Positions 68 through 11,353 of a DNA stretch of 11,573 nucleotides are shown one piece after another. The stretch lies in UHGV virus genome UHGV-1580203. One strand, 5' to 3'. Under the pieces are notes generated by a model that saw nothing but the letters and a program-made list of their open reading frames with translations, was not told the origin of the DNA and made no database searches. Source of the DNA: a virus. A program made the position numbers and the translations under genes. Position 1 is the first letter of the stretch; the number at the start of each line of letters is the position of its first letter.

Positions 68-1231
68 TTACGCCTTCTTTATATCCTCCATAATTCCACA
101 GTGGGACATATTTGGGACATTATCACCAAAAATGTCGTCTATTTTCCTTGCATGCTCTGTCAAATGATTAGGCGCAAGGTGAGCATACCTACGAACCATT
201 TCTATGGACTCCCATCCGCCCATTTCCTGAAGCACAGATAATGGGACGCCTGACTGGATCAGCCAGCTTGCCCAGGTGTGTCTGAGGTCATGGAAACGGA
301 AATCTTCAATTCCTGCACGACGACAAGCTGATAGCCATGATGTCTTGCTGTCGATGCGCATCTTCCTGACCGCAGGCGTTGATGTTCCATCTGCTCGCTT
401 AGCCGCCTTGGTATGTACAAACACCCATTTGTGATGCTTGCCTATTTGATCACGCAACACTTTACAGGCGGTATCGTTCAGCGCCACACCAATGGCGCGG
501 TTTGATTTGCTCTCTTCTGGATTCACCCAGGCAACTCGTCGCTGCATGTCGATTTGTTGCCATTCCAGATTTATGATGTTCGACTTTCTCAGACCAGTTG
601 CCAGCGCAAACTTGACGACAGATTTCAGTGGTTCGGAGCACTCATCAATAAGGCGTTTTGCTTCCTCCTTTTCCAGCCATCTGACTCGCTTGTTTCTGAC
701 CGCTGGTATCTTGATGACAGGCGCTTTTTCCAGCCACTTCCAGTCGCGTTCTGCAGCACGGAGAATGGCCTTTATCATGGCAAGATGCTTTGCCTTTGTC
801 TGAGTTGATACTGGCTTTGGTTCATAAACAGGCGGTTCTTTACCTTTCCTGATGGCGGCCTGAACTTTCTGTTTCCATATTTCTTTCGTCTTTCTGTTAT
901 GCATTCTGCTTACAGCAGAGTAAATCTTTGCCTCCGAGATATCTTTAAGCCTTATACCCTCAAAATGTTCAAGCCAGAACTCAATCCGGCTTTTATCTGA
1001 ATCGAGAGATTTTTTATCAGCTTTTTCCTCAAGCCATCTTAGGCAGGCCTCTTCAAAAGTGACATCAGGTAAATCCCCTAGCTTTTCTACTCGCCAGAGT
1101 TCTGCTTTTCGCTTGTCGTGCAACTCCTGAGCTTGCCGCTTGTCCTTTGTGCCAAGAGATTCCTTAATTCGTTTCCCGCCCGGGAGCGAATACGAGGCAT
1201 ACCATATTTCATTTCTGCGGAAGAGTGACAT
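68..1231 (-). CDS. int: Tyrosine-type phage integrase (P22/DLP12 IntD-like)
   Basis: 387-aa ORF ending 15 bp from the tRNA 3' end; C-terminal [15 protein letters not shown] and RRYAHL motifs typical of tyrosine recombinase R-H-R-Y catalytic core; RBS GAGGAAA upstream of ATG at 1231; N-terminus MSLFRR...WYASY resembles P22-family Int by recollection. Confidence 0.95.
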
Positions 1232-1458
1232 TTTCTTTCCTCTGTTATGCCATCACCCGCGCTCACTTGGACAGTATGCAGCGGAGACTGAAGCGCCGCA
1301 ATGCAAGCTTGCCGTGTTGTGAGGTAAGGAGATTTTGGCTTGGTTGGATCTTTACGTGTTGCCTGTAGGCGGCCTGTTCGTATCCAGTTGGTGGCGGTTG
1401 GTCTGGATATCTTAAGAAACTGACAGGCCTCATCGAGTGTGAGGCTGTATGGCTCCAT
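1087..1458 (-). CDS. xis: Excisionase (Xis), start taken at internal Met of the 151-aa ORF
   Basis: Internal start [31 protein letters not shown], a helix-turn-helix excisionase-like N-terminus; the ATG overlaps the upstream gene stop as TAATG (1456-1460); 3' end overlaps int by about 145 nt, so C-terminal extent is uncertain. Confidence 0.7.
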
Positions 1459-1763
1459 TATTTCACCTCTTGCTGTGTCATTGTTGAAAAATGGATACCA
1501 GCTCGTTGCTGCCAGACGATCCAACCGAGAGTCATATCCCATGCCATGTATTCGTTATCGCCGTTTTTTACTCTCCGACGATCTACTAAGTCACCGAAAC
1601 GCTTTTCCATGAATAATTCATAGGCTTCGCGTTCATCTGGCTCTACTTCCAGAGATACGAGTGCGATTTCATAAGCACGGCGCTCAATATCGTCTCGAAC
1701 CTCTAGGCTGCTGATTCGTTCTTTGATTTCTTTAATCAGTTCTTTATTGGTAAATGTGGTCAT
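1458..1763 (-). CDS. yfdT: Hypothetical early protein, YfdT-like (101 aa)
   Basis: ORF of 101 aa translationally coupled on both sides (TAATG overlaps at 1761-1765 and 1456-1460); length and position match my recollection of CPS-53 yfdT; function unknown. Confidence 0.65.
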   Translation of the reverse strand: MTTFTNKELIKEIKERISSLEVRDDIERRAYEIALVSLEVEPDEREAYELFMEKRFGDLVDRRRVKNGDNEYMAWDMTLGWIVWQQRAGIHFSTMTQQEVK

Positions 1764-3669: not shown

Positions 3670-4032
3670 TTAACGACCTGCTGCGCGGAGTTTTCCGTCA
3701 GGTTCACCGGCAAGAGTCAGTAATTGTCCCTGGTCTTCCTGCAGAATAGTCAGGCGACCACCGCGATTGACATACATCGGCGTTTCGGTGGTGTCTTCTT
3801 CGGAAATTTTCCCGCGGTTAGTTGGGCGAACATATGAGAGTTTGTGTTTGATTTTCACACGGTTCTCATCAAACGGTTCGATTTCCAGATTGAGTGAGAC
3901 CTTCCCTTTGGTTTTCGTGTTCATCACACCGGAAGCGACCTCACTGAGAACTGCGCCGATTTTGGTTTCAAATACGCCGCCGTCCAGCTCCCCGATAAAT
4001 GCCTGCACATCAGTACTGCGTTCGCTAGCCAT
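3670..4032 (-). CDS. yfdP: Hypothetical phage protein, YfdP-like (120 aa), start at internal Met of the 182-aa ORF
   Basis: Internal start MASERSTDVQ preceded by RBS AGGAG with 7-nt spacing; the upstream 62 codons of the listed ORF are GC-rich and not protein-like; 120-aa length matches recollection of yfdP. Confidence 0.65.
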   Translation of the reverse strand: MASERSTDVQAFIGELDGGVFETKIGAVLSEVASGVMNTKTKGKVSLNLEIEPFDENRVKIKHKLSYVRPTNRGKISEEDTTETPMYVNRGGRLTILQEDQGQLLTLAGEPDGKLRAAGR

Positions 4033-4080
4033 TTTGCTGCTCCTCATCATATCGACCCTGCAAGGTCGGTTGGTTTCTCC

Positions 4081-4169
4081 ACAAAACAGAGAAGAACACC
4101 TGCGGTGGCAGCCGCCCGGATGGATTGGGTTATGAGCCCGTCGTCCGGTGATGCTCTTCTCTGTTTTGT
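4081..4169. repeat. Long imperfect inverted repeat (18-bp arms, one mismatch) flanking a 53-bp GC-rich core
   Basis: Seen: 4081-4098 ACAAAACAGAGAAGAACA versus reverse complement of 4152-4169 (ACAAAACAGAGAAGAGCA); on the minus-strand RNA the mismatch becomes a G-U wobble, giving an 18-bp stem; inner segment has CCGGA/TCCGG pairing. Confidence 0.6.
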
Positions 4170-4460
4170 AAAAAGAGCGGTGCCAGCCGGAAGCAAGTGT
4201 ACAAACTGGTACCGCCAAAGCAGTGGCTGTTGTGGTGCCGGGTGCCTCCCGGTGCCTGGCGAAGGTTGCACACCAGGCGGGTGGGTATCCACAGAAGGTC
4301 GACTGTCAGCCTCAACCTTAACCCGCGTGCGCTGAGCCGCATTCACCACAACGCTAAGGATTCTCTCTGGTTGAAAATACTTAGCTGTTATGTGCCTGCT
4401 TTTAGCCACATCAGGCGAGGTGGACCTGGTTATTCCCCAACAACAAGGATTCGGTTAATC

Positions 4461-4493: not shown

Positions 4494-4997
4494 ATGGACA
4501 AATTTGATAGAAGTGCACAAAGGCAGTTGTTACAAATACTGTATGATGCTCATCCTTATGAAATTTCTGATGATGCGTTGCAGTCTGTTCGTGACGCATT
4601 TGGAGATGATAATGTCCTAATTTCGAACTTAATTTATCTCGAAGAACATGGCTTGATTAAGAATGCTCTTGATTATTACTTGGATGGCATAAATATAAAT
4701 ATTCCTGAATTAAGAATTACTAAAGATGGAATTGATTTCATTCGTGATGATGGAGGTCTTAAAGCTATTCTTGGGATTATGACAATAAGATTGCATGATG
4801 AGACTCTCTGTGAACTTGAACGTATCATCAATAGTTCTACTTCTGCCACGACTGAAGATAAGAAGAAATTACTCTCTCAGCTTCGAACGCTTCCTGCCGA
4901 CGCCATAAAACAGCTGACGATTCGATTACTTGGTCAGGGGCTTGACCATCTGCCGGACGTATTTCACGTAATTCAAAAAGCCCTCCATTCTCTGTAA
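4494..4997 (+). CDS. Orphan 167-aa protein, unknown function (AT-rich moron in the immunity-adjacent slot)
   Basis: Uninterrupted 167-codon frame through visibly A/T-rich DNA with A/T-ending codons, opposite in orientation to the flanking early-left operon; followed by a plus-strand intrinsic terminator at 5175-5198; no family recognised. Confidence 0.6.
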   Translation: MDKFDRSAQRQLLQILYDAHPYEISDDALQSVRDAFGDDNVLISNLIYLEEHGLIKNALDYYLDGININIPELRITKDGIDFIRDDGGLKAILGIMTIRLHDETLCELERIINSSTSATTEDKKKLLSQLRTLPADAIKQLTIRLLGQGLDHLPDVFHVIQKALHSL

Positions 4998-5455: not shown

Positions 5456-6148
5456 TTAATTATGTCTCTTAAGGGTTTGCGACTGACTGATTAAGACCTT
5501 TCCAAAGACCATGAATCGGTGTTCGTTTTCGCTAGTAATTCCCCATTCACGGTAAATCTGGTTATCAGAAATCACCAGCAGTTTGTCAGGAATCATTTGA
5601 AGTCTTTTAACGTATATTTTGTCATCAAAACCAAAGACATATATACCATCACCATCAAACTGATTGATGCTGACATCAACGAAGATGAGATCTCCTGGCT
5701 CAATGGTTGGACACATACTGTCCCCACGAACGTTGATAACTTTGATGTGATTGGCTGGTCGTCCGCCGAACATTGATACAGCATTATCAGTTCTGTATTC
5801 GATGGCATGAATCACATCAATGACATCACCGCCCTGGATAAGGCCATTTCCCGCACTGGCACTGATATCCAGCATTTCAATACGGAACACATCCTTCACC
5901 TGCGCAACATCCTCATTATTACTGTTTTTATATACAGTATTACTTTTGTGGGCAGAGGTAAAGAGATCAGCAATATCAACACCTAAGCTCTTGGCAATAT
6001 TACTCAGTGTTTGTTCGGTAAATTGTTTTTGCTTACCCGTTTCTAAGCGCGAGATGTTCGCCGCATCTACTCCTATCGCTTCAGCGAGATCGGCGATTTT
6101 CATGTTCTTCGCTTGGCGAAGTTGTCTGACTCGGTTTCCTATGTTCAT
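5456..6148 (-). CDS. cI: CI-type prophage repressor (N-terminal HTH, C-terminal LexA-like S24 autopeptidase domain)
   Basis: 230 aa; N-terminal HTH (VRQLRQAKNMKIADLAEAIGVDAANISRLETGK); C-terminal GDSM (catalytic Ser) and VKRL (catalytic Lys) motifs of the S24 family; divergent from a cro-like gene. Confidence 0.93.
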   Translation of the reverse strand: MNIGNRVRQLRQAKNMKIADLAEAIGVDAANISRLETGKQKQFTEQTLSNIAKSLGVDIADLFTSAHKSNTVYKNSNNEDVAQVKDVFRIEMLDISASAGNGLIQGGDVIDVIHAIEYRTDNAVSMFGGRPANHIKVINVRGDSMCPTIEPGDLIFVDVSINQFDGDGIYVFGFDDKIYVKRLQMIPDKLLVISDNQIYREWGITSENEHRFMVFGKVLISQSQTLKRHN

Positions 6149-6245: not shown

Positions 6246-6506
6246 ATGCAATCACCATTACGAAATGTGCGTAAGGCGCATGGTTTCACTTTGCAGCATG
6301 TTGCTGCGGGTGTTCAAGTCAATCCAGCGACGTTGAGTCGTATTGAGAGGCTGGAGCAGATTCCATCTATCGAGCTTGCAGAACGTTTAGCCAATTTTTT
6401 TAAGGGTGAAGTCAGCGAAATGCAGATTCTTTATCCGGCACGTTTTCAATCTAGCCAAAACCAGAATGGGTTTAAACCACAGGAACAGGAGGTGAACCGT
6501 GGGTAA
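6246..6506 (+). CDS. cro: Cro-like HTH transcriptional regulator (XRE family)
   Basis: 86 aa; HTH segment GFTLQHVAAGVQVNPATLSRIERLEQ; first gene rightward of the operator region, divergent from cI; GGAGG RBS. Confidence 0.88.
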   Translation: MQSPLRNVRKAHGFTLQHVAAGVQVNPATLSRIERLEQIPSIELAERLANFFKGEVSEMQILYPARFQSSQNQNGFKPQEQEVNRG

Positions 6507-7050
6507 GCATCACTGGAAAGTAGAAAAACAGCCTGAGTGGTACGTGAAAGCTGTCAGAAAAACTATCGCAGCGTTGCCGGGGGGGTACGCTGAAGCTGCT
6601 GACTGGCTGGATGTAACAGAGAACGCATTATTTAACCGCCTTCGTGCCGATGGCGATCAGATTTTCCCGCTGGGATGGGCAATGGTTTTGCAACGTGCTG
6701 GTGGAACTCACTTCATTGCTGACGCTGTGGCGCAGTCTGCAAATGGCGTCTTTGTGTCTCTTCCTGATGTCGAGGATGTGGACAACGCCGATATCAACCA
6801 ACGCCTGCTGGAGGTCATTGAACAGATCGGCAGTTATTCAAAACAGATTCGTTCAGCAATTGAAGACGGTGTAGTGGAACCGCATGAGAAGACAGCAATT
6901 AACGACGAGCTGTACCTCTCAATTTCGAAGCTGCAGGAGCATGCAGCACTGGTCTACAAAATCTTTTGCGTTTCAGAAAGTAGTGACGCCCGCGAGTGTG
7001 CAGCTCCGGGCGCCGTGGCGTGTCGTGACTGTGGAGAAACTAACGCATGA
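6499..7050 (+). CDS. CII-like or YdaT-like regulatory protein candidate (function by position only)
   Basis: 183-aa ORF starting at GTG 6499 (RBS AGGAGG upstream), overlapping the cro stop; position immediately after cro is where cII-type or YdaT-type proteins sit; the CDS is clear but the family assignment is weak. Confidence 0.75.
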
Positions 7051-7385
7051 ACAGTTTAACAACACACTACCGTCGCTCGCAACTGATTGCGCTTCCTGTA
7101 CCGGGTGGAAAAGCGAAGGTGGAGTATTGCTATGCAGTAAATGTACCAGGTGACAGGGAAATTGTAACCCACAGCTTTGCTGAGTGGGCTGTGGGTGATT
7201 TCAACCGGCAGAAGGAGACAGTCCTTTGCGACAAGTTAACCGCTGGTTCAAAGATCACTACGGAGTGCCCGTCAGAGTCATTCGTTGGGAGCCGGAAACA
7301 CAACGAGTTATCTACCTCCGCGAAGGCTATGAGCATGAGTGCTTCAGCCCGCTCGAACAGTTTCGTCGTAAATTCAGGGAAATAG
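7047..7385 (+). CDS. Hypothetical ORF (112 aa); 3' half likely not coding in this frame
   Basis: ATGA overlap with the upstream stop supports a start at 7047, but the C-terminal third ([22 protein letters not shown]) is low-complexity while an alternative frame looks protein-like from about 7199. Confidence 0.3.
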
Positions 7386-7405
7386 AGGTCGGTCATGAGC
7401 ACTAA
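7226..7405 (+). CDS. Candidate small protein (about 59 aa, TTG start) in an alternative frame, not in the supplied ORF track
   Basis: RBS GAAGGAGA at 7211-7218 then TTG at 7226; frame reads [59 protein letters not shown] to stop at 7403-7405; protein-like composition; overlaps the O-like start by 11 nt. Confidence 0.35.
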
Positions 7406-8336
7406 ATTAACCGGCTATGTATGGGATGGTTGCGCTGCATCAGGCATGAAATTATCCAGCGTGGCAATTATGGCCCGCCTGGCTGATTTCAGTAATGACG
7501 AAGGTGTGTGTTGGCCATCAATTGAAACCATTGCCCGTCAGATTGGCGCGGGGATGAGTACCGTCAGGACGGCTATCGCACGGCTGGAAGCAGAAGGCTG
7601 GTTAACGCGTAAGGCGCGTCGCCAGGGTAACCGCAATGCGTCGAATGTTTATCAGCTTAACGTTGCGAAGCTTCAGGCAGCGGCATTTTCTCAACTGTCA
7701 GATTCTGACCCGTCAAAATCTGACGCATCAAAATCTGACCCGTCAAAATTTGATGCGTCGAAATCTGGCAAAAAAGCGGGTTTTCACCCGTCAGAATCTG
7801 GCGGGGATCCGTCAGTAAAATCAAAACATGATCCGTCAGATAAAAAACCTTCTCGTCCGGACGCTTCGCAACCGGACACGCAGACGGATGAACAGGATTT
7901 TTTAACTCGCCATCCTGATGCGGTTGTATTCAGCCCTAAAAAGCGCCATTGGGGAACGCAGGATGATTTGACCTGCGCACAGTGGCTCTGGAAAAAAATC
8001 ATCGCCCTGTACGAGCAAGCCGCCGAATGTGACGGCGAGGTGGTTCGTCCCAAAGAACCGAACTGGACAGCCTGGGCAAACGAAATTCGCCTGATGTGTG
8101 TGCAGGATGGTCGTACTCACAAACAAATCTGCGAGATGTACAGCCGCGTCAGCCGCGATCCGTTCTGGTGCCGTAACGTGCTCAGCCCGTCGAAGTTGCG
8201 GGAAAAATGGGATGAGCTTTCCCTGCGCTTATCACCGTCCGTCAGCACGTACACCGAAAAACGCGAAGACCCGTACTTCAAATCCAGTTACGACAACGTG
8301 GACTACAGCCAGATCCCGGCAGGATTCAGGGGGTGA
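7395..8336 (+). CDS. Replication initiator protein (lambda O-like architecture: N-terminal HTH domain, iteron-encoded linker, C-terminal domain)
   Basis: 313 aa; N-terminal HTH-like segment (WPSIETIARQIGAGMSTVRTAIARLEAEGWL); central low-complexity linker encoded by tandem DNA repeats (see ori feature); RBS GAGG upstream of ATG 7395. Confidence 0.85.
   Translation: MSTKLTGYVWDGCAASGMKLSSVAIMARLADFSNDEGVCWPSIETIARQIGAGMSTVRTAIARLEAEGWLTRKARRQGNRNASNVYQLNVAKLQAAAFSQLSDSDPSKSDASKSDPSKFDASKSGKKAGFHPSESGGDPSVKSKHDPSDKKPSRPDASQPDTQTDEQDFLTRHPDAVVFSPKKRHWGTQDDLTCAQWLWKKIIALYEQAAECDGEVVRPKEPNWTAWANEIRLMCVQDGRTHKQICEMYSRVSRDPFWCRNVLSPSKLREKWDELSLRLSPSVSTYTEKREDPYFKSSYDNVDYSQIPAGFRG
7690..7850. repeat. 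Origin-like iteron array inside the initiator gene: four to five 15-bp tandem repeats (TCTGACSSRTCAAAA) followed by spaced GATCCGTCAG repeats and an A-rich tract
   Basis: Seen: units at 7705-7719, 7720-7734, 7735-7749, 7750-7764 and degenerate 7765-7779; CCGTCAG at 7789-7795, 7810-7816, 7834-7840; ATAAAAAA at 7841-7848. Lambda ori likewise lies within O as iterons plus an A/T-rich region. Confidence 0.7.
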
Positions 8337-8338
8337 TC

Positions 8339-8827
8339 ATGAGTCTTTTGAATGAAGTTCAGAAATTCATTGAAGCCCATCCGGGATGTACTTCCGGAGA
8401 CATTGCGGATGCTTTTGCAGGTTACTCACGGCAGCGCGTTCTGCAGTCAGCAAGCAAGTTACGTCAGAGTGGGCGTGTGGCTCACCGTTGTGAAGGAGAT
8501 ACACGCAGACATTTCCCGCGCCTGACTGAGAGAGCGCAGGAACCGGAACCACAACCAGTTCGAGAAACCAGACCTGTGCGCAATTTCTATGTCGGCACTA
8601 ACGATCCACGGGTGATTTTGTGCCTGACCCGCCAGGCTGAAGAACTGGAGTCCAGGGGCTTATACCGTCGTGCTGCAACCGTGTGGATGGCGGCATTCCG
8701 TGAAAGCCACTCCCAGCCAGAACGAAACAATTTTCTGGCGCGTCGTGAGCGGTGCTTACGGAAAAGCAGCAAGCGCGCTGCATCGGGTGAAGAGTGGTAT
8801 CTGTCAGGGAATTACGTGGGGGCTTAA
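8339..8827 (+). CDS. Hypothetical protein with C-terminal PerC-like motif (putative transcriptional regulator)
   Basis: Start taken at ATG 8339 (RBS AGGGGG; GTG 8333 also possible); C-terminal GLYRRAATVWMAAFRESHSQPERNNFLARRERC resembles the PerC-family signature as I recall it; family call is tentative. Confidence 0.6.
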   Translation: MSLLNEVQKFIEAHPGCTSGDIADAFAGYSRQRVLQSASKLRQSGRVAHRCEGDTRRHFPRLTERAQEPEPQPVRETRPVRNFYVGTNDPRVILCLTRQAEELESRGLYRRAATVWMAAFRESHSQPERNNFLARRERCLRKSSKRAASGEEWYLSGNYVGA

Positions 8828-9153
8828 TGACGACGTTAACTCAATGCCAGCAGCAGGTGCTGGATATGCTGATTTCTTACCAGAAAGAACGTGGCTTCCC
8901 GCCAACCAATCAGGAGGTGGCTACCATGCTGGGATACCGTTCAGTGAATGCAGCGGTGGAGCATCTTCGCGCACTGGAGAAAAAAGGCGTCATCACGATA
9001 AAGCGTGGCGTGGCCCGGGGCATCACGCTTCATACCGCGGTGAAGGACGACGACAGCGAGGTGGCCGGGATTATCCGCGCACTGCTTGCTGGTGAGGAAA
9101 ACGCCAGGCTGCGTGCAGCCCACTGGTTACATGAGAGGGGGCTGAAAGTATGA
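8827..9153 (+). CDS. LexA N-terminal DNA-binding-domain protein lacking the S24 peptidase domain (108 aa)
   Basis: LTQCQQQVLDMLISYQKERGFPPTNQEVATMLGYRSVNAAVEHLRALEKKGVITIKRGVARGITL closely parallels the LexA winged-helix N-domain (LTxRQxEV...GxPPTRxEIAxxLGFRSPNAAEEHLKALxRKGVIEI); start ATG 8827 overlaps the upstream stop (TAATG); no Ser/Lys protease domain follows. Confidence 0.75.
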   Translation: MTTLTQCQQQVLDMLISYQKERGFPPTNQEVATMLGYRSVNAAVEHLRALEKKGVITIKRGVARGITLHTAVKDDDSEVAGIIRALLAGEENARLRAAHWLHERGLKV

Positions 9154-9539
9154 AGCTGATTCTGCCTTTTCCACCCAGCGTGAATACCTACTGGCGACAC
9201 CCCAACAAAGTGGCATTTGCTGGTAAGAGCCTGATAAGCGCGGCGGGGCGAAAATTCCAGAGTGCGGCGTGCACAGCAATAGTTGAGCAGTTACGTCGTC
9301 TGCCGAAACCAACGTCGGCACCTGCTTCAGTGGAGATCGTGTTGTTTCCTCCGGATAACCGGATCCGCGATCTGGACAACTATAACAAGGCGCTGTTTGA
9401 CGCCCTGACCCACGCGGGTGTGTGGGAAGACGACAGCCAGGTGAAAAGAATGCTGGTGGAGTGGGGACCGGTTATCCCGGAAGGGAAGGTCGAGATCACT
9501 ATCAGTAAGTACGAGAAAACGGCGGGTGCAGCCGCCTGA
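9150..9539 (+). CDS. rusA: RusA-family Holliday junction resolvase
   Basis: 129 aa; RIRDLDNYNKALFDALTHAGVWEDDSQV matches the RusA catalytic-region signature (RxRDLDN...FDAL...DD); ATGA overlap with the upstream stop. Confidence 0.88.
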   Translation: MKLILPFPPSVNTYWRHPNKVAFAGKSLISAAGRKFQSAACTAIVEQLRRLPKPTSAPASVEIVLFPPDNRIRDLDNYNKALFDALTHAGVWEDDSQVKRMLVEWGPVIPEGKVEITISKYEKTAGAAA

Positions 9540-9558
9540 TCAAGAGGAGAAACGAAGT

Positions 9559-10356
9559 ATGAATAATCTGATGGTCATTGATGGTATTGAAGTTCGTCGT
9601 GATGCTTATGGGCGTTACAGCCTGAACGATCTGCACAGGGCTGCCGGTTCTCTGGATAAGCATAAGCCTGCATTCTGGCTCCGCAATGAGCAAACTGAAC
9701 GTTTAATAAGCGAGTTGCAGATTTGCAACTCGGTCAATATAGAGCCAGTTAACGTTATTCGTGGCGGAAATAACCAGGGGACGTATGTCTGCAAAGAACT
9801 GGTGTATGCCTATGCAATGTGGATCAGCCCGTCATTCCATCTGAAGGTGATCCGTACTTTCGATATGGTAACCAGCGCATCGGAAAAATTATCCGGGCAG
9901 GCTGCTGACAAGATGCAGGCTGGCGTGATTCTGCTGGACTTTATGCGCCGGGAGTTAAACCTGTCTAACTCTTCAGTGCTTGGTGCCTGTCAGAAACTCC
10001 AGGAGGCTGTTGGCTTACCGAATCTGGCACCGCGCTATGCCATTGATGCTCCTGCTGACGCGCCTGATGGCTCAAGCCGCCCCACGCTGTCACTGAGTGC
10101 ACTGCTGAAGCAGTATGGTATCCGCCTGACAGCTAATCAGGCATATCACCAGATGGTGAAGCTGGGGATCGTCGAGCAGCGCGAACGATACAGCCGTACC
10201 GCGATTAACAACATCAAAAAATTCTGGTCGCTGACAGCGAAAGGCTGCATGTTCGGCAAGAACATCACCAGTCCCGCAAATCCGCGCGAGACGCAGCCGC
10301 ATTTCTTCGAATCCCGATTCCCTGAGCTGTTAAAGCTGCTCGATACCGTTCATTGA
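9559..10356 (+). CDS. KilA-N domain protein (putative antirepressor-type DNA-binding protein), start at Met12 of the listed ORF
   Basis: N-terminus MNNLMVIDGIEVRRDAYGRYSLNDLHRAAG...FWLRNEQTERLI is typical of KilA-N domains; RBS AAGAGGAGA upstream of ATG 9559; the listed start at 9526 lies inside rusA. Confidence 0.78.
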   Translation: MNNLMVIDGIEVRRDAYGRYSLNDLHRAAGSLDKHKPAFWLRNEQTERLISELQICNSVNIEPVNVIRGGNNQGTYVCKELVYAYAMWISPSFHLKVIRTFDMVTSASEKLSGQAADKMQAGVILLDFMRRELNLSNSSVLGACQKLQEAVGLPNLAPRYAIDAPADAPDGSSRPTLSLSALLKQYGIRLTANQAYHQMVKLGIVEQRERYSRTAINNIKKFWSLTAKGCMFGKNITSPANPRETQPHFFESRFPELLKLLDTVH

Positions 10357-10357
10357 G

Positions 10358-11353
10358 GTGACCGTGAGAGCACTATTGACCCCTGAAATTGCCCCGCGTA
10401 TGGGGATCGTATTGTTCAGGCCCGGTTCAGAGCTGATGCCCCTGTTTATGCAGGGGCGTGTACTGCTGGAGCCTGAGCCGGAGCATTATTCATCTTTCGC
10501 CAGTGGTGCCGTTCCCGCGGCATCACAACCGCTGGCGGATGATCCTGCCGTTCGGGCCGTGTTCCGTAATGAGGCAGTGATTCGTCGTGCTGGTGGGGTG
10601 GAATGTCTTGAAAGCTGGTTACTTCGTGAAAAAGGCTGCCAGTGGCCTCATTCCGACTGGCACAGCGAGAACATGACCACAATGCGACACGCGCCGGGCG
10701 CAATCCGTCTGTGCTGGCACTGCGATAATCAGTTACGTGATCAGTTCACGGAGCGGCTGGAATCAATGGCAACGGATAACTGTGCCCGTTGGGTGTTGTC
10801 TGTAGTCCGTCGGGATCTCGATTTTAATGATAACCATGCCGTGACAATGCCGGAACTGTGCTGGTGGCTGGTTCGTAATGACCTGGCGGATGCCTTACCG
10901 GAAAGCGCAGCCCGTAAGGCACTGAGATTACCGAAGTCTGTTTTGCCGTCTGTCACCCGGGAAAGTGACCTTGTGCCTTCGGTTCCTGCCACCAGCATCA
11001 TCCAGGATAAGGCGAAAAAGGTGCTGGCGCTGAAAGTGGATCCGGAGTCGCCGGAGTCTTTTATGTTACGCCCCAAACGTCGTCGCTGGGTTAATGAACA
11101 GTACACGCGCTGGGTTAAGACGCAGCCGTGTGCATGTTGTGGAAAGCCAGCTGATGATCCGCATCATCTGATAGGCCATGGTCAGGGTGGAATGGGTACA
11201 AAAGCGCATGACCTTTTTGTGCTGCCTTTGTGCAGAAAACACCACGACGAACTGCATGCGGATACCGTGGCATTTGAAGAGAAGTATGGCTCCCAGCTGG
11301 AGCTGATATTTCGTTTTATCGATCGCGCACTGGCGATTGGTGTGCTGGCCTGA
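10358..11353 (+). CDS. DUF968-like nin-region protein with C-terminal Cys/His (HNH-like) zinc-binding motif
   Basis: 331 aa; C-terminus [43 protein letters not shown] has CxxC...HH...C...HH spacing; start could be GTG 10358 or GTG 10364 (better RBS spacing); family call is recollection-based. Confidence 0.75.

Follow-up and report, generated by a model that had tools for sequence, protein, structure and literature searches.

How does a temperate phage bring the replicative helicase to its origin when its initiator gene is not followed by a gene for a helicase loader? The question is raised by an 11,573-nucleotide stretch of viral DNA (UHGV virus genome UHGV-1580203; hereafter the window), which is the integrase-to-early-right part of an SfII / SfIV / mEp460 / KpLE1-type temperate phage and in which the gene of an O-like replication initiator is directly followed by yfdN, the gene of a PerC-like protein. 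The initial annotation of this locus had suggested, among other options, that the C-terminal part of the initiator recruits host DnaB/DnaC directly, and the comparative evidence presented here favours this option, specifically through a short tail at the extreme C-terminus that resembles the end of E. coli DnaT. We give slightly better than even chances to a model in which the phage borrows host DnaC via this DnaT-like tail, and the initiator would then be the only protein of the replication module.

No recognisable helicase loader follows the initiator, as the annotation had stated. Hidden Markov models (HMMs) of lambda P and DnaC, built from 46 P-like and 5 DnaC-like proteins, found no match at E <= 10 among the open reading frames (ORFs) of at least 60 amino acids in the window or in the complete 39.8-kb genome of phage SfIV, which is 97% identical, is also without a P-like or DnaC-like ORF and has no helicase or loader entry in its annotation. 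As a positive control, the DnaC HMM and Pfam detected the loader in YdaV and in four O-like modules with a DnaC-like gene (L086, L097, L108 and L111). The profile search of both proteins that the annotation had asked for returned no loader domain and upheld the similarity to PerC: at a Pfam E-value of 0.1 or below, neither the initiator nor YfdN matched an AAA+ loader family (PF01695 / PF00308), the initiator had no AAA+, IstB, DnaA, Phage_lambda_P or DnaB match, and Phage_lambda_P (PF06992) was likewise without a match in either protein. The Walker A-like pattern [AG]xxxxGK[STN] was absent from all ORFs of at least 100 amino acids in the window and in the SfIV genome, and Pfam found no ATPase domain in either protein, in agreement with the claim that neither carries Walker A/B motifs. 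The premise that lambdoid modules normally pair an initiator with a loader was overstated, since pairing is found in part of the family only: 30 of 78 species-level relatives sharing the C-terminal domain (C-domain) of the initiator have neither P nor DnaC next door, and the present module occurs in about half of E. coli (2816 of 5426 complete genomes).

Aligning the relatives of the C-domain brought out the conserved extreme C-terminus, ..IPxGFRG. In the window initiator eight of the last nine residues (SQIPAGFRG) are identical to those of E. coli DnaT (SQIPPGFRG; the K-12 protein ends in ..RDVNTVSEPDSQIPPGFRG), and among 107 DnaT orthologs this tail is near-invariant, its conservation being equal to that of the helices that bind single-stranded DNA (ssDNA). 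Relatives of the initiator align with DnaT over 19-43 residues, the BLASTP match of one of them (P0126; E 6e-8) extending into the last helix, and a profile of the tail-bearing subfamily aligned with a DnaT profile in hhalign at a probability of 97% (E 3e-11), with most of the score coming from the tail. The tail has a low predicted local distance difference test score (pLDDT) in the structural model, which is consistent with a disordered linear motif. At the level of sequence, the initiator shares its tail with DnaT, and we claim no shared domain. It is because of this tail similarity that some phage initiators carry the annotation 'primosomal protein (I)'.

With 2667 cluster representatives at E <= 0.001, the family of the C-domain is a large one, and its members show a handful of distinct tail types. 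In viral contigs, a scan based on the family alignment picked up nothing but copies of 98-100% identity; the sample used here was drawn from a collection in which each species is represented by a single genome. It comprises 80 loci, of which 78 were classified by tail, and the ORFs that follow were classified by iterated searches. A lambda-P gene came next in all 45 loci with tryptophan-rich tails, namely 28 of 28 with WNxxEAWE, 14 of 14 with NTDW and 3 of 3 with the Aeromonas type (EWDLTKTM..), and a DnaC-like gene in none. The 17 loci with a DnaT-like tail (..IPxGFRG) included none with a P-like gene, three with a DnaC-like gene and 14 with neither in the next three or four ORFs. Neither gene was found next to the five GFR[SVC] variants or the nine ..WNxIW.. 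tails (L120, L122, L123, L125, L135, L144, L148, L152 and L153, two of the nine having little or no downstream DNA), and the two loci with other tails had a P-like gene in one case, neither in the other and a DnaC-like gene in none. Comparing the DnaT-like tails with the three P-associated types gave a Fisher p of 1e-15, uncorrected for phylogeny. Pfam confirmed Phage_lambda_P for 46 of the 46 P-labelled proteins; in the 61 ORFs that follow the DnaT-like (17) and GFR-variant (5) tails it found no P, while IstB_IS21/Bac_DnaA matched in the three DnaC-labelled proteins only, the remaining families being PerC, DUF977, DUF1627, Dam/MT-A70, ParB-HTH, RusA and LexA-N. The P gene of a P-type module overlaps the initiator stop codon; the DnaC-like genes of the three DnaC-type modules begin 2 nucleotides past it. 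Single look-ups agreed, with P next to two initiators with tryptophan-rich tails (P0160, P0129), a DnaC-like gene next to P0126 (DnaT-like tail), and neither next to two further initiators with DnaT-like tails (P0145, P0169). All loader-less loci with a DnaT-like tail in this sample come from Enterobacterales or have enterobacterial sequence, and these hosts possess dnaT and dnaC. Three loci assigned to other hosts in metagenome bins ('Bacillota bacterium', 'Veillonella parvula') have tails identical to those of Escherichia (L102, L105) or Citrobacter (L141) and are probably mis-binned enterobacterial prophage DNA. The ..WNxIW.. tails (..AWNSIWKQA.. / ..WNKIWAECSQR..) are found in Proteus, Morganella, Edwardsiella, Sodalis and Acerihabitans.

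The association of tail and loader extends beyond this family. We searched viral contigs for stretches that encode PDxx[IV]PxGFRG directly before a stop codon, whatever the rest of the protein, and assigned the body of each ORF to a family with the tail masked. Among at least 120 loci, the bodies were the O-type C-domain of the window initiator (at least 44), YdaU/DUF1376 (at least 44), phage-encoded DnaT-like proteins (at least 5) and others (at least 27), many of the last with a ..TFFGP..W.. end; the tail is present on at least four initiator families, Rac YdaU included. The downstream gene was DnaC-like in at least 68 of these loci and neither loader in at least 42, at least 10 had no downstream DNA, and a P-like gene followed in none among the matches listed. 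In the Rac prophage of K-12, YdaU (DUF1376) has the C-terminus ..LPDSAIPPGFRG, and the next gene encodes YdaV, a DnaC-type ATPase; the phage DnaC-like proteins are 48-50% identical to E. coli DnaC. One identical tail occurs with a DnaC-like gene in at least 12 contigs and without it in at least 7, which indicates that the phage gene comes and goes while the tail stays, and which is what one would expect if phages can lose their own gene and rely on DnaC from the host. The DnaT-like proteins of phage contigs (..FHHDQWQQKLARS..EPDSEIPPGFRG) had a DnaC-like gene next in 2 of 5 among the matches listed, so that a dnaT-dnaC-like pair exists on mobile elements.

At the loci sampled, the tail travels with DnaC-type loaders, be they encoded by the next gene or presumably provided by the host, and never with P, despite a common C-domain. 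Since P and DnaC are reported to bind the same site on DnaB (PMC9912922), the simplest reading is that the tail would contact the loader or a loader-specific complex. We therefore propose that a lambda-style replication module may here be reduced to the initiator alone. Its N-terminal winged helix would bind the 15-bp repeats inside its own gene, the helical C-domain would be the organiser part, and the last ~10 residues (..IPAGFRG) would act as a disordered docking peptide of the type seen at the DnaT C-terminus, bringing host DnaB6-DnaC6 to the opened origin, most likely via a contact with DnaC, so that a phage P or DnaC gene would be unneeded. Relatives with a DnaC-like gene directly after the initiator would then represent the fuller form of the module. 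Both the use of host DnaC and the binding partner of the tail are things that we infer. According to PMC5778457, PMC11087952 and PMC13377028, no contact between DnaT and DnaC is documented.

A wider version, which we hold tentatively and rate somewhat below an even chance, is that ..IPxGFRG might be a portable docking peptide for DnaC or DnaB6-DnaC6, present in DnaT and in at least four unrelated phage initiator families, that it might be the missing link through which the PriA-PriB-DnaT preprimosome recruits the helicase and its loader, that the dnaT-dnaC operon might be a domesticated phage module of an initiator C-domain plus a loader, and that the tryptophan-rich tails (WNxxEAWE, NTDW) might dock lambda-P-type loaders. 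If this version is true, a single peptide would account for the hand-over from the restart machinery of E. coli to DnaB-DnaC, a step that the literature leaves open, by showing how DnaT recruits the helicase-loader complex; it would also explain why a very common family of E. coli and Shigella prophages, including serotype-converting and Shiga toxin (Stx) phages, manages without a loader gene. The last dozen residues of an initiator would then reveal its type of loader, giving a simple annotation rule and a handle to predict which host factors a temperate phage needs.

Several observations weigh against the borrowing of host DnaC through the tail. The window has the most reduced version of the tail, with the IPxGFRG core kept and the upstream RDVN..S.PD part gone, and its pairwise match with DnaT has an E-value of only 0.009. 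Tails of loader-less initiators resemble the host DnaT tail no more than do those of initiators with a dnaC of their own (mean identity 6.9 vs 9.8 of 13 residues). The ..WNxIW.. tails are also without P and DnaC in 9 of 9 loci, so the lack of a loader does not require a DnaT-like tail. Loci within a clade are not independent, so the Fisher p given above overstates the evidence, and the class with neither gene reflects the neighbouring ORFs, the whole genome having been checked for SfIV. In addition, a 2026 cryo-electron microscopy study of the preprimosome suggests that the N-domain of DnaT, rather than its tail, may recruit DnaB/DnaC, leaving the mechanism open (PMC13377028), and removal of DnaT residues 154-179 lowers ssDNA affinity and cooperativity (PMC4132743), the sole experimental datum on this segment found in our literature search.

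Two other ways of using the tail deserve to be weighed, each of which we consider improbable and neither more so than the other. The C-domain and tail might mimic DnaT, replacing it on PriA/PriB at an origin opened as an R-loop or D-loop, in which case the partner of the tail would be PriA or PriB and loading would follow the restart pathway. The tail is, after all, that of DnaT, the documented partners of DnaT are PriA, PriB and ssDNA (PMC13377028), and the source annotation 'primosomal protein' reflects similarity to DnaT. Alternatively, the tail might aid ssDNA binding or oligomerisation of the C-domain, with the globular C-domain contacting DnaB, or DnaA at the origin, to bring the helicase. 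This would agree with the finding that both affinity and cooperativity in dT30 binding are lower for DnaT 84-153 than for DnaT 84-179 (PMC4132743), with a low-confidence hhalign alignment that places the near-invariant F257-W258 of the initiator family on Y127-W128 of DnaT, which stack on bases, and with a weak fold similarity of the C-domain to DnaD/G39P organiser domains. However, it leaves unexplained why the tail tracks the loader so cleanly when the globular domain is common to all types, and why the same tail is found on unrelated bodies (DUF1376 and others) beside DnaC-like genes. Docking of host DnaC through the tail is the reading that we prefer over both.

The PerC-like protein was the other candidate for a role in replication. 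The gene encodes 164 amino acids from GTG 8333 or 162 from ATG 8339, the latter being the reading to which the 162-residue protein of the initial annotation corresponds; this ATG lies 2 nucleotides past the initiator TGA and 5 nucleotides past an AGGGGG run that resembles a Shine-Dalgarno sequence. Residues 100-151 (nucleotides 8630-8785) match Pfam PerC (PF06069) with an E-value of 7.8e-9 and 36.1 bits against a cut-off of 22.6, and the RefSeq label, 'yfdN: PerC family transcriptional regulator', agrees, so that the proposed resemblance of the C-terminus to PerC is borne out; relatives carry the same precomputed domain. In PHROGs the protein belongs to phrog_1324 'transcriptional activator' (E 8e-79), with weak MarR and Ren-like matches over residues 3-70, and a sequence search of the PDB gave no match. 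Compared with the PerC / Pch / ANR regulators, to which it is related by the PerC match and by a weak ANR match below cut-off, YfdN is about twice as long and has an extra N-terminal half of winged-helix-like character. The gene has been referred to as the K-12 homologue of PerC in a study in which it was deleted merely for a clean background (PMC5931665), and our literature search found no published test of YfdN on the locus of enterocyte effacement (LEE) or on any other promoter.

We think it quite improbable that a loader is hidden among the phage genes, in the sense that DnaB is loaded, through a novel mechanism, by YfdN, by the LexA-N-like protein downstream, or by either the DUF4222 protein or a 112-amino-acid ORF upstream. 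Translational coupling of yfdN to the initiator and the weak family matches in the N-terminal half of YfdN speak for such a loader, as does the replacement of loaders by non-homologous proteins in viruses, which is reported elsewhere (PMC11087808). The gene after initiators with the same tail is, however, not constant, being yfdN, dam/MT-A70, DUF977, DUF1627, a gene for a ParB-HTH protein or a DnaC-like gene in different lineages; a dam / N-6-adenine methyltransferase gene of ~650 bp sits exactly between initiator and yfdN in many 97-99% identical relatives, many of them 99% identical (the window and SfIV are without this insertion); PerC-like ORFs also follow initiators with other tails, and P itself in P-type modules; and the DUF4222 family lies directly upstream of related initiators that have P (L084, L085). 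With a variable partner gene and PerC-like ORFs also after P, the suggested replication role of the PerC-like protein is not supported either. As for a regulator of lysogenic conversion, which had also been suggested, we found no evidence here: yfdN begins 2 nucleotides past the initiator stop, and a crude promoter scan, which is weak evidence, showed no promoter-like site on the yfdN strand between cro and rusA. Thus yfdN looks like a gene of the repressed early-right operon, and from its sequence YfdN is best seen as a putative PerC-family regulator encoded by the first 'nin-region-like' gene of that operon, and as no loader; neither a part in replication nor expression in the lysogen finds support in these data. 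The outcome for YfdN is deflationary, in that it would be a common passenger of the early operon outside the replication machinery.

Decay of the module, with loss of a former loader gene from a prophage now defective, is very improbable, for while some database entries are truncated and the decayed K-12 copy CPS-53/KpLE1 has yfdN beside a truncated O gene, the ORFs are intact in the window and the arrangement is 94-98% identical in deposited complete genomes (SfII, SfIV, mEp460 and others) and conserved across species.

The initiator itself belongs to phrog_391 'replication initiation O-like' in PHROGs; in Pfam, HTH_36 alone is above cut-off, with weaker winged-helix, GntR-like and DnaD_N-like matches, and Phage_rep_O, the origin-binding domain of the lambda O type, does not match. 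The AlphaFold2 model (mean pLDDT 82) has two folded domains and a disordered linker, with a confident winged helix at residues 1-102, the linker at ~105-160, a confident helical C-domain at 165-280 and a low-confidence tail. Foldseek matched the N-terminal domain solely to winged helices of the MarR/TFIIE type, a PDB sequence search with the initiator gave MarR-type matches only, and Foldseek found nothing for the C-domain. As to a relation of the C-domain to the DnaT domain, the whole-family hhalign alignment was collinear but had a probability of 3%, and the fold search did not return DnaT; the Pfam DnaT family (PF17948) does not match the initiator. Within the linker-coding part of the gene lies an array of iteron-like repeats, with start-to-start spacings of 15, 15, 15, 15 and 33 bp (repeat family D1; inverted repeats I3, I5 and I7), for which Tandem Repeats Finder gave a period of 15, 4.3 copies and a score of 86. 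Iteron-like repeats and, a little downstream of them, an A/T-rich region are thus both inside the initiator gene, as in the lambda O type, and by analogy with ori-lambda inside gene O the repeats may function as the origin and the A/T-rich stretch as the unwinding region.

Like lambda O/P, the window module lies behind cro and cII in the early-right operon; its initiator, too, joins an N-terminal DNA-binding domain through a flexible linker to a C-terminal organiser domain, and repeats with an A/T-rich stretch lie inside the initiator gene. The module differs in that it has no P gene, its place being taken by yfdN, in that the initiator matches HTH_36 only and has a DnaT-like tail, and in that its C-domain family is distinct from that of lambda O (PF09524, according to PMC5509034). 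With DnaT it shares the extreme C-terminus (..S.PD..IPxGFRG) and, in close relatives, the last helix too, and relatives that keep a DnaC-like gene show the layout of the dnaT-dnaC operon, a tail-bearing protein followed by a DnaC-type ATPase; the N-terminus of the initiator is, in contrast, a winged helix that presumably binds the repeats, whereas that of DnaT is an oligomerising N-domain, and the predicted role of the initiator is origin-specific initiation whereas that of DnaT is fork restart. Rac YdaU-YdaV and the O-like modules with a DnaC-like gene (such as the four among the positive controls above) have the same tail and the same place in the early operon, and the latter have the same C-domain as well; they differ from the window in having a DnaC-like loader of their own 2-6 nucleotides past the initiator, and YdaU in having a DUF1376 body. 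Similarity to SPP1 G39P and DnaD-like 'replisome organiser' domains is limited to fold scores in the generic helical range, with no Pfam DnaB_2 match.

Part of this picture has precedents. An initiator-solo class was reportedly recognised by Weigel and Seitz in 2006; a literature search for such a class found nothing. Brezellec et al. reported in 2017 that DopC combines HTH_36 with a C-terminal motif of DnaT (2ru8_A in HHpred; PMC5509034), an architecture of the same kind, by description, as that of the window initiator family, so that the link of this architecture with DnaT is not wholly new; unlike the window initiator, DopC is encoded on the chromosome, lacks iterons and has a P-derived partner, DopE. 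Literature searches for the PPGFRG motif and its variants returned nothing relevant, and we found no description of the correspondence between initiator tail type and loader type, or of the DnaT tail on several unrelated phage initiators, which we take to be new.

As an arrangement of genes, the module is common and has been annotated before. A segment of 3.4 kb with the initiator and yfdN is 99% identical to many E. coli chromosomes and shares 94-98% identity with the deposited complete genomes of SfII, SfIV, mEp460, Kati, PhiR29 and an Stx2k phage, and the initiator gene is 97-98% identical in DNA to the 'O protein / primosomal protein' genes of SfII and SfIV. The features of the window are collected in the table.

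Table. Position, strand and supporting evidence of the features of the window.
Feature	Position	Strand	Evidence
Integrase	68-1231	-	
cI-type repressor	5456-6148	-	
cro-like gene	6246-6506	+	
CII/YmfL-like gene	6499-7050	+	
Small DUF4222 ORF, 59 aa, its end inside the initiator start	7226-7405	+	Pfam DUF4222 E 8.6e-19
O-like replication initiator, 313 aa	7395-8336	+	phrog_391 E 2e-135
N-terminal winged-helix DNA-binding domain of the initiator (HTH_36 residues 23-70; fold 1-102)	7461-7604	+	Pfam E 4e-11; Foldseek
Iteron-like array, putative origin: 6 copies of a 13-bp partly palindromic unit (GTCAAAATCTGAC type)	7697-7805	.	
A/T-rich stretch (AGATAAAAAA ... GGATTTTTTAACT), candidate unwinding region	7838-7907	.	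Sequence read directly; inverted repeat I12
Helical C-terminal domain of the initiator, residues 165-280; invariant W227, R232, W258; PNW..WAN.IRL motif	7887-8234	+	
Tail DYSQIPAGFRG, residues 303-313, proposed docking peptide for host DnaB-DnaC	8301-8333	+	DnaT match
yfdN, PerC-family	8333-8827 (GTG) or from ATG 8339	+	
LexA-N-domain protein	8794-9153	+	
RusA	9150-9539	+	
KilA-N protein	9526-10356	+	
DUF968/HNH protein	10358-11353	+	

Some further features may be mentioned. The 112-amino-acid ORF upstream of the initiator (7047-7385, plus strand; phrog_1170, E 4e-70), which is the one usually called in annotations of phages, overlaps the DUF4222 ORF on the same strand in another frame, and either one of the two is spurious or both are real overlapping genes. 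The LexA-N protein, of 119 amino acids, overlaps the end of yfdN and consists solely of a LexA DNA-binding domain (E 4e-19) without the S24 peptidase domain; it could be a competitor at LexA boxes or a non-cleavable repressor. Between integrase and repressor, the ORFs at 4494-4997 (plus strand), 3670-4218 (minus strand) and 1458-1763 (minus strand) have no Pfam or NCBIfam match, and the first of them, of 167 amino acids, lies within a low-GC patch (0.38-0.42), which suggests an acquired moron.

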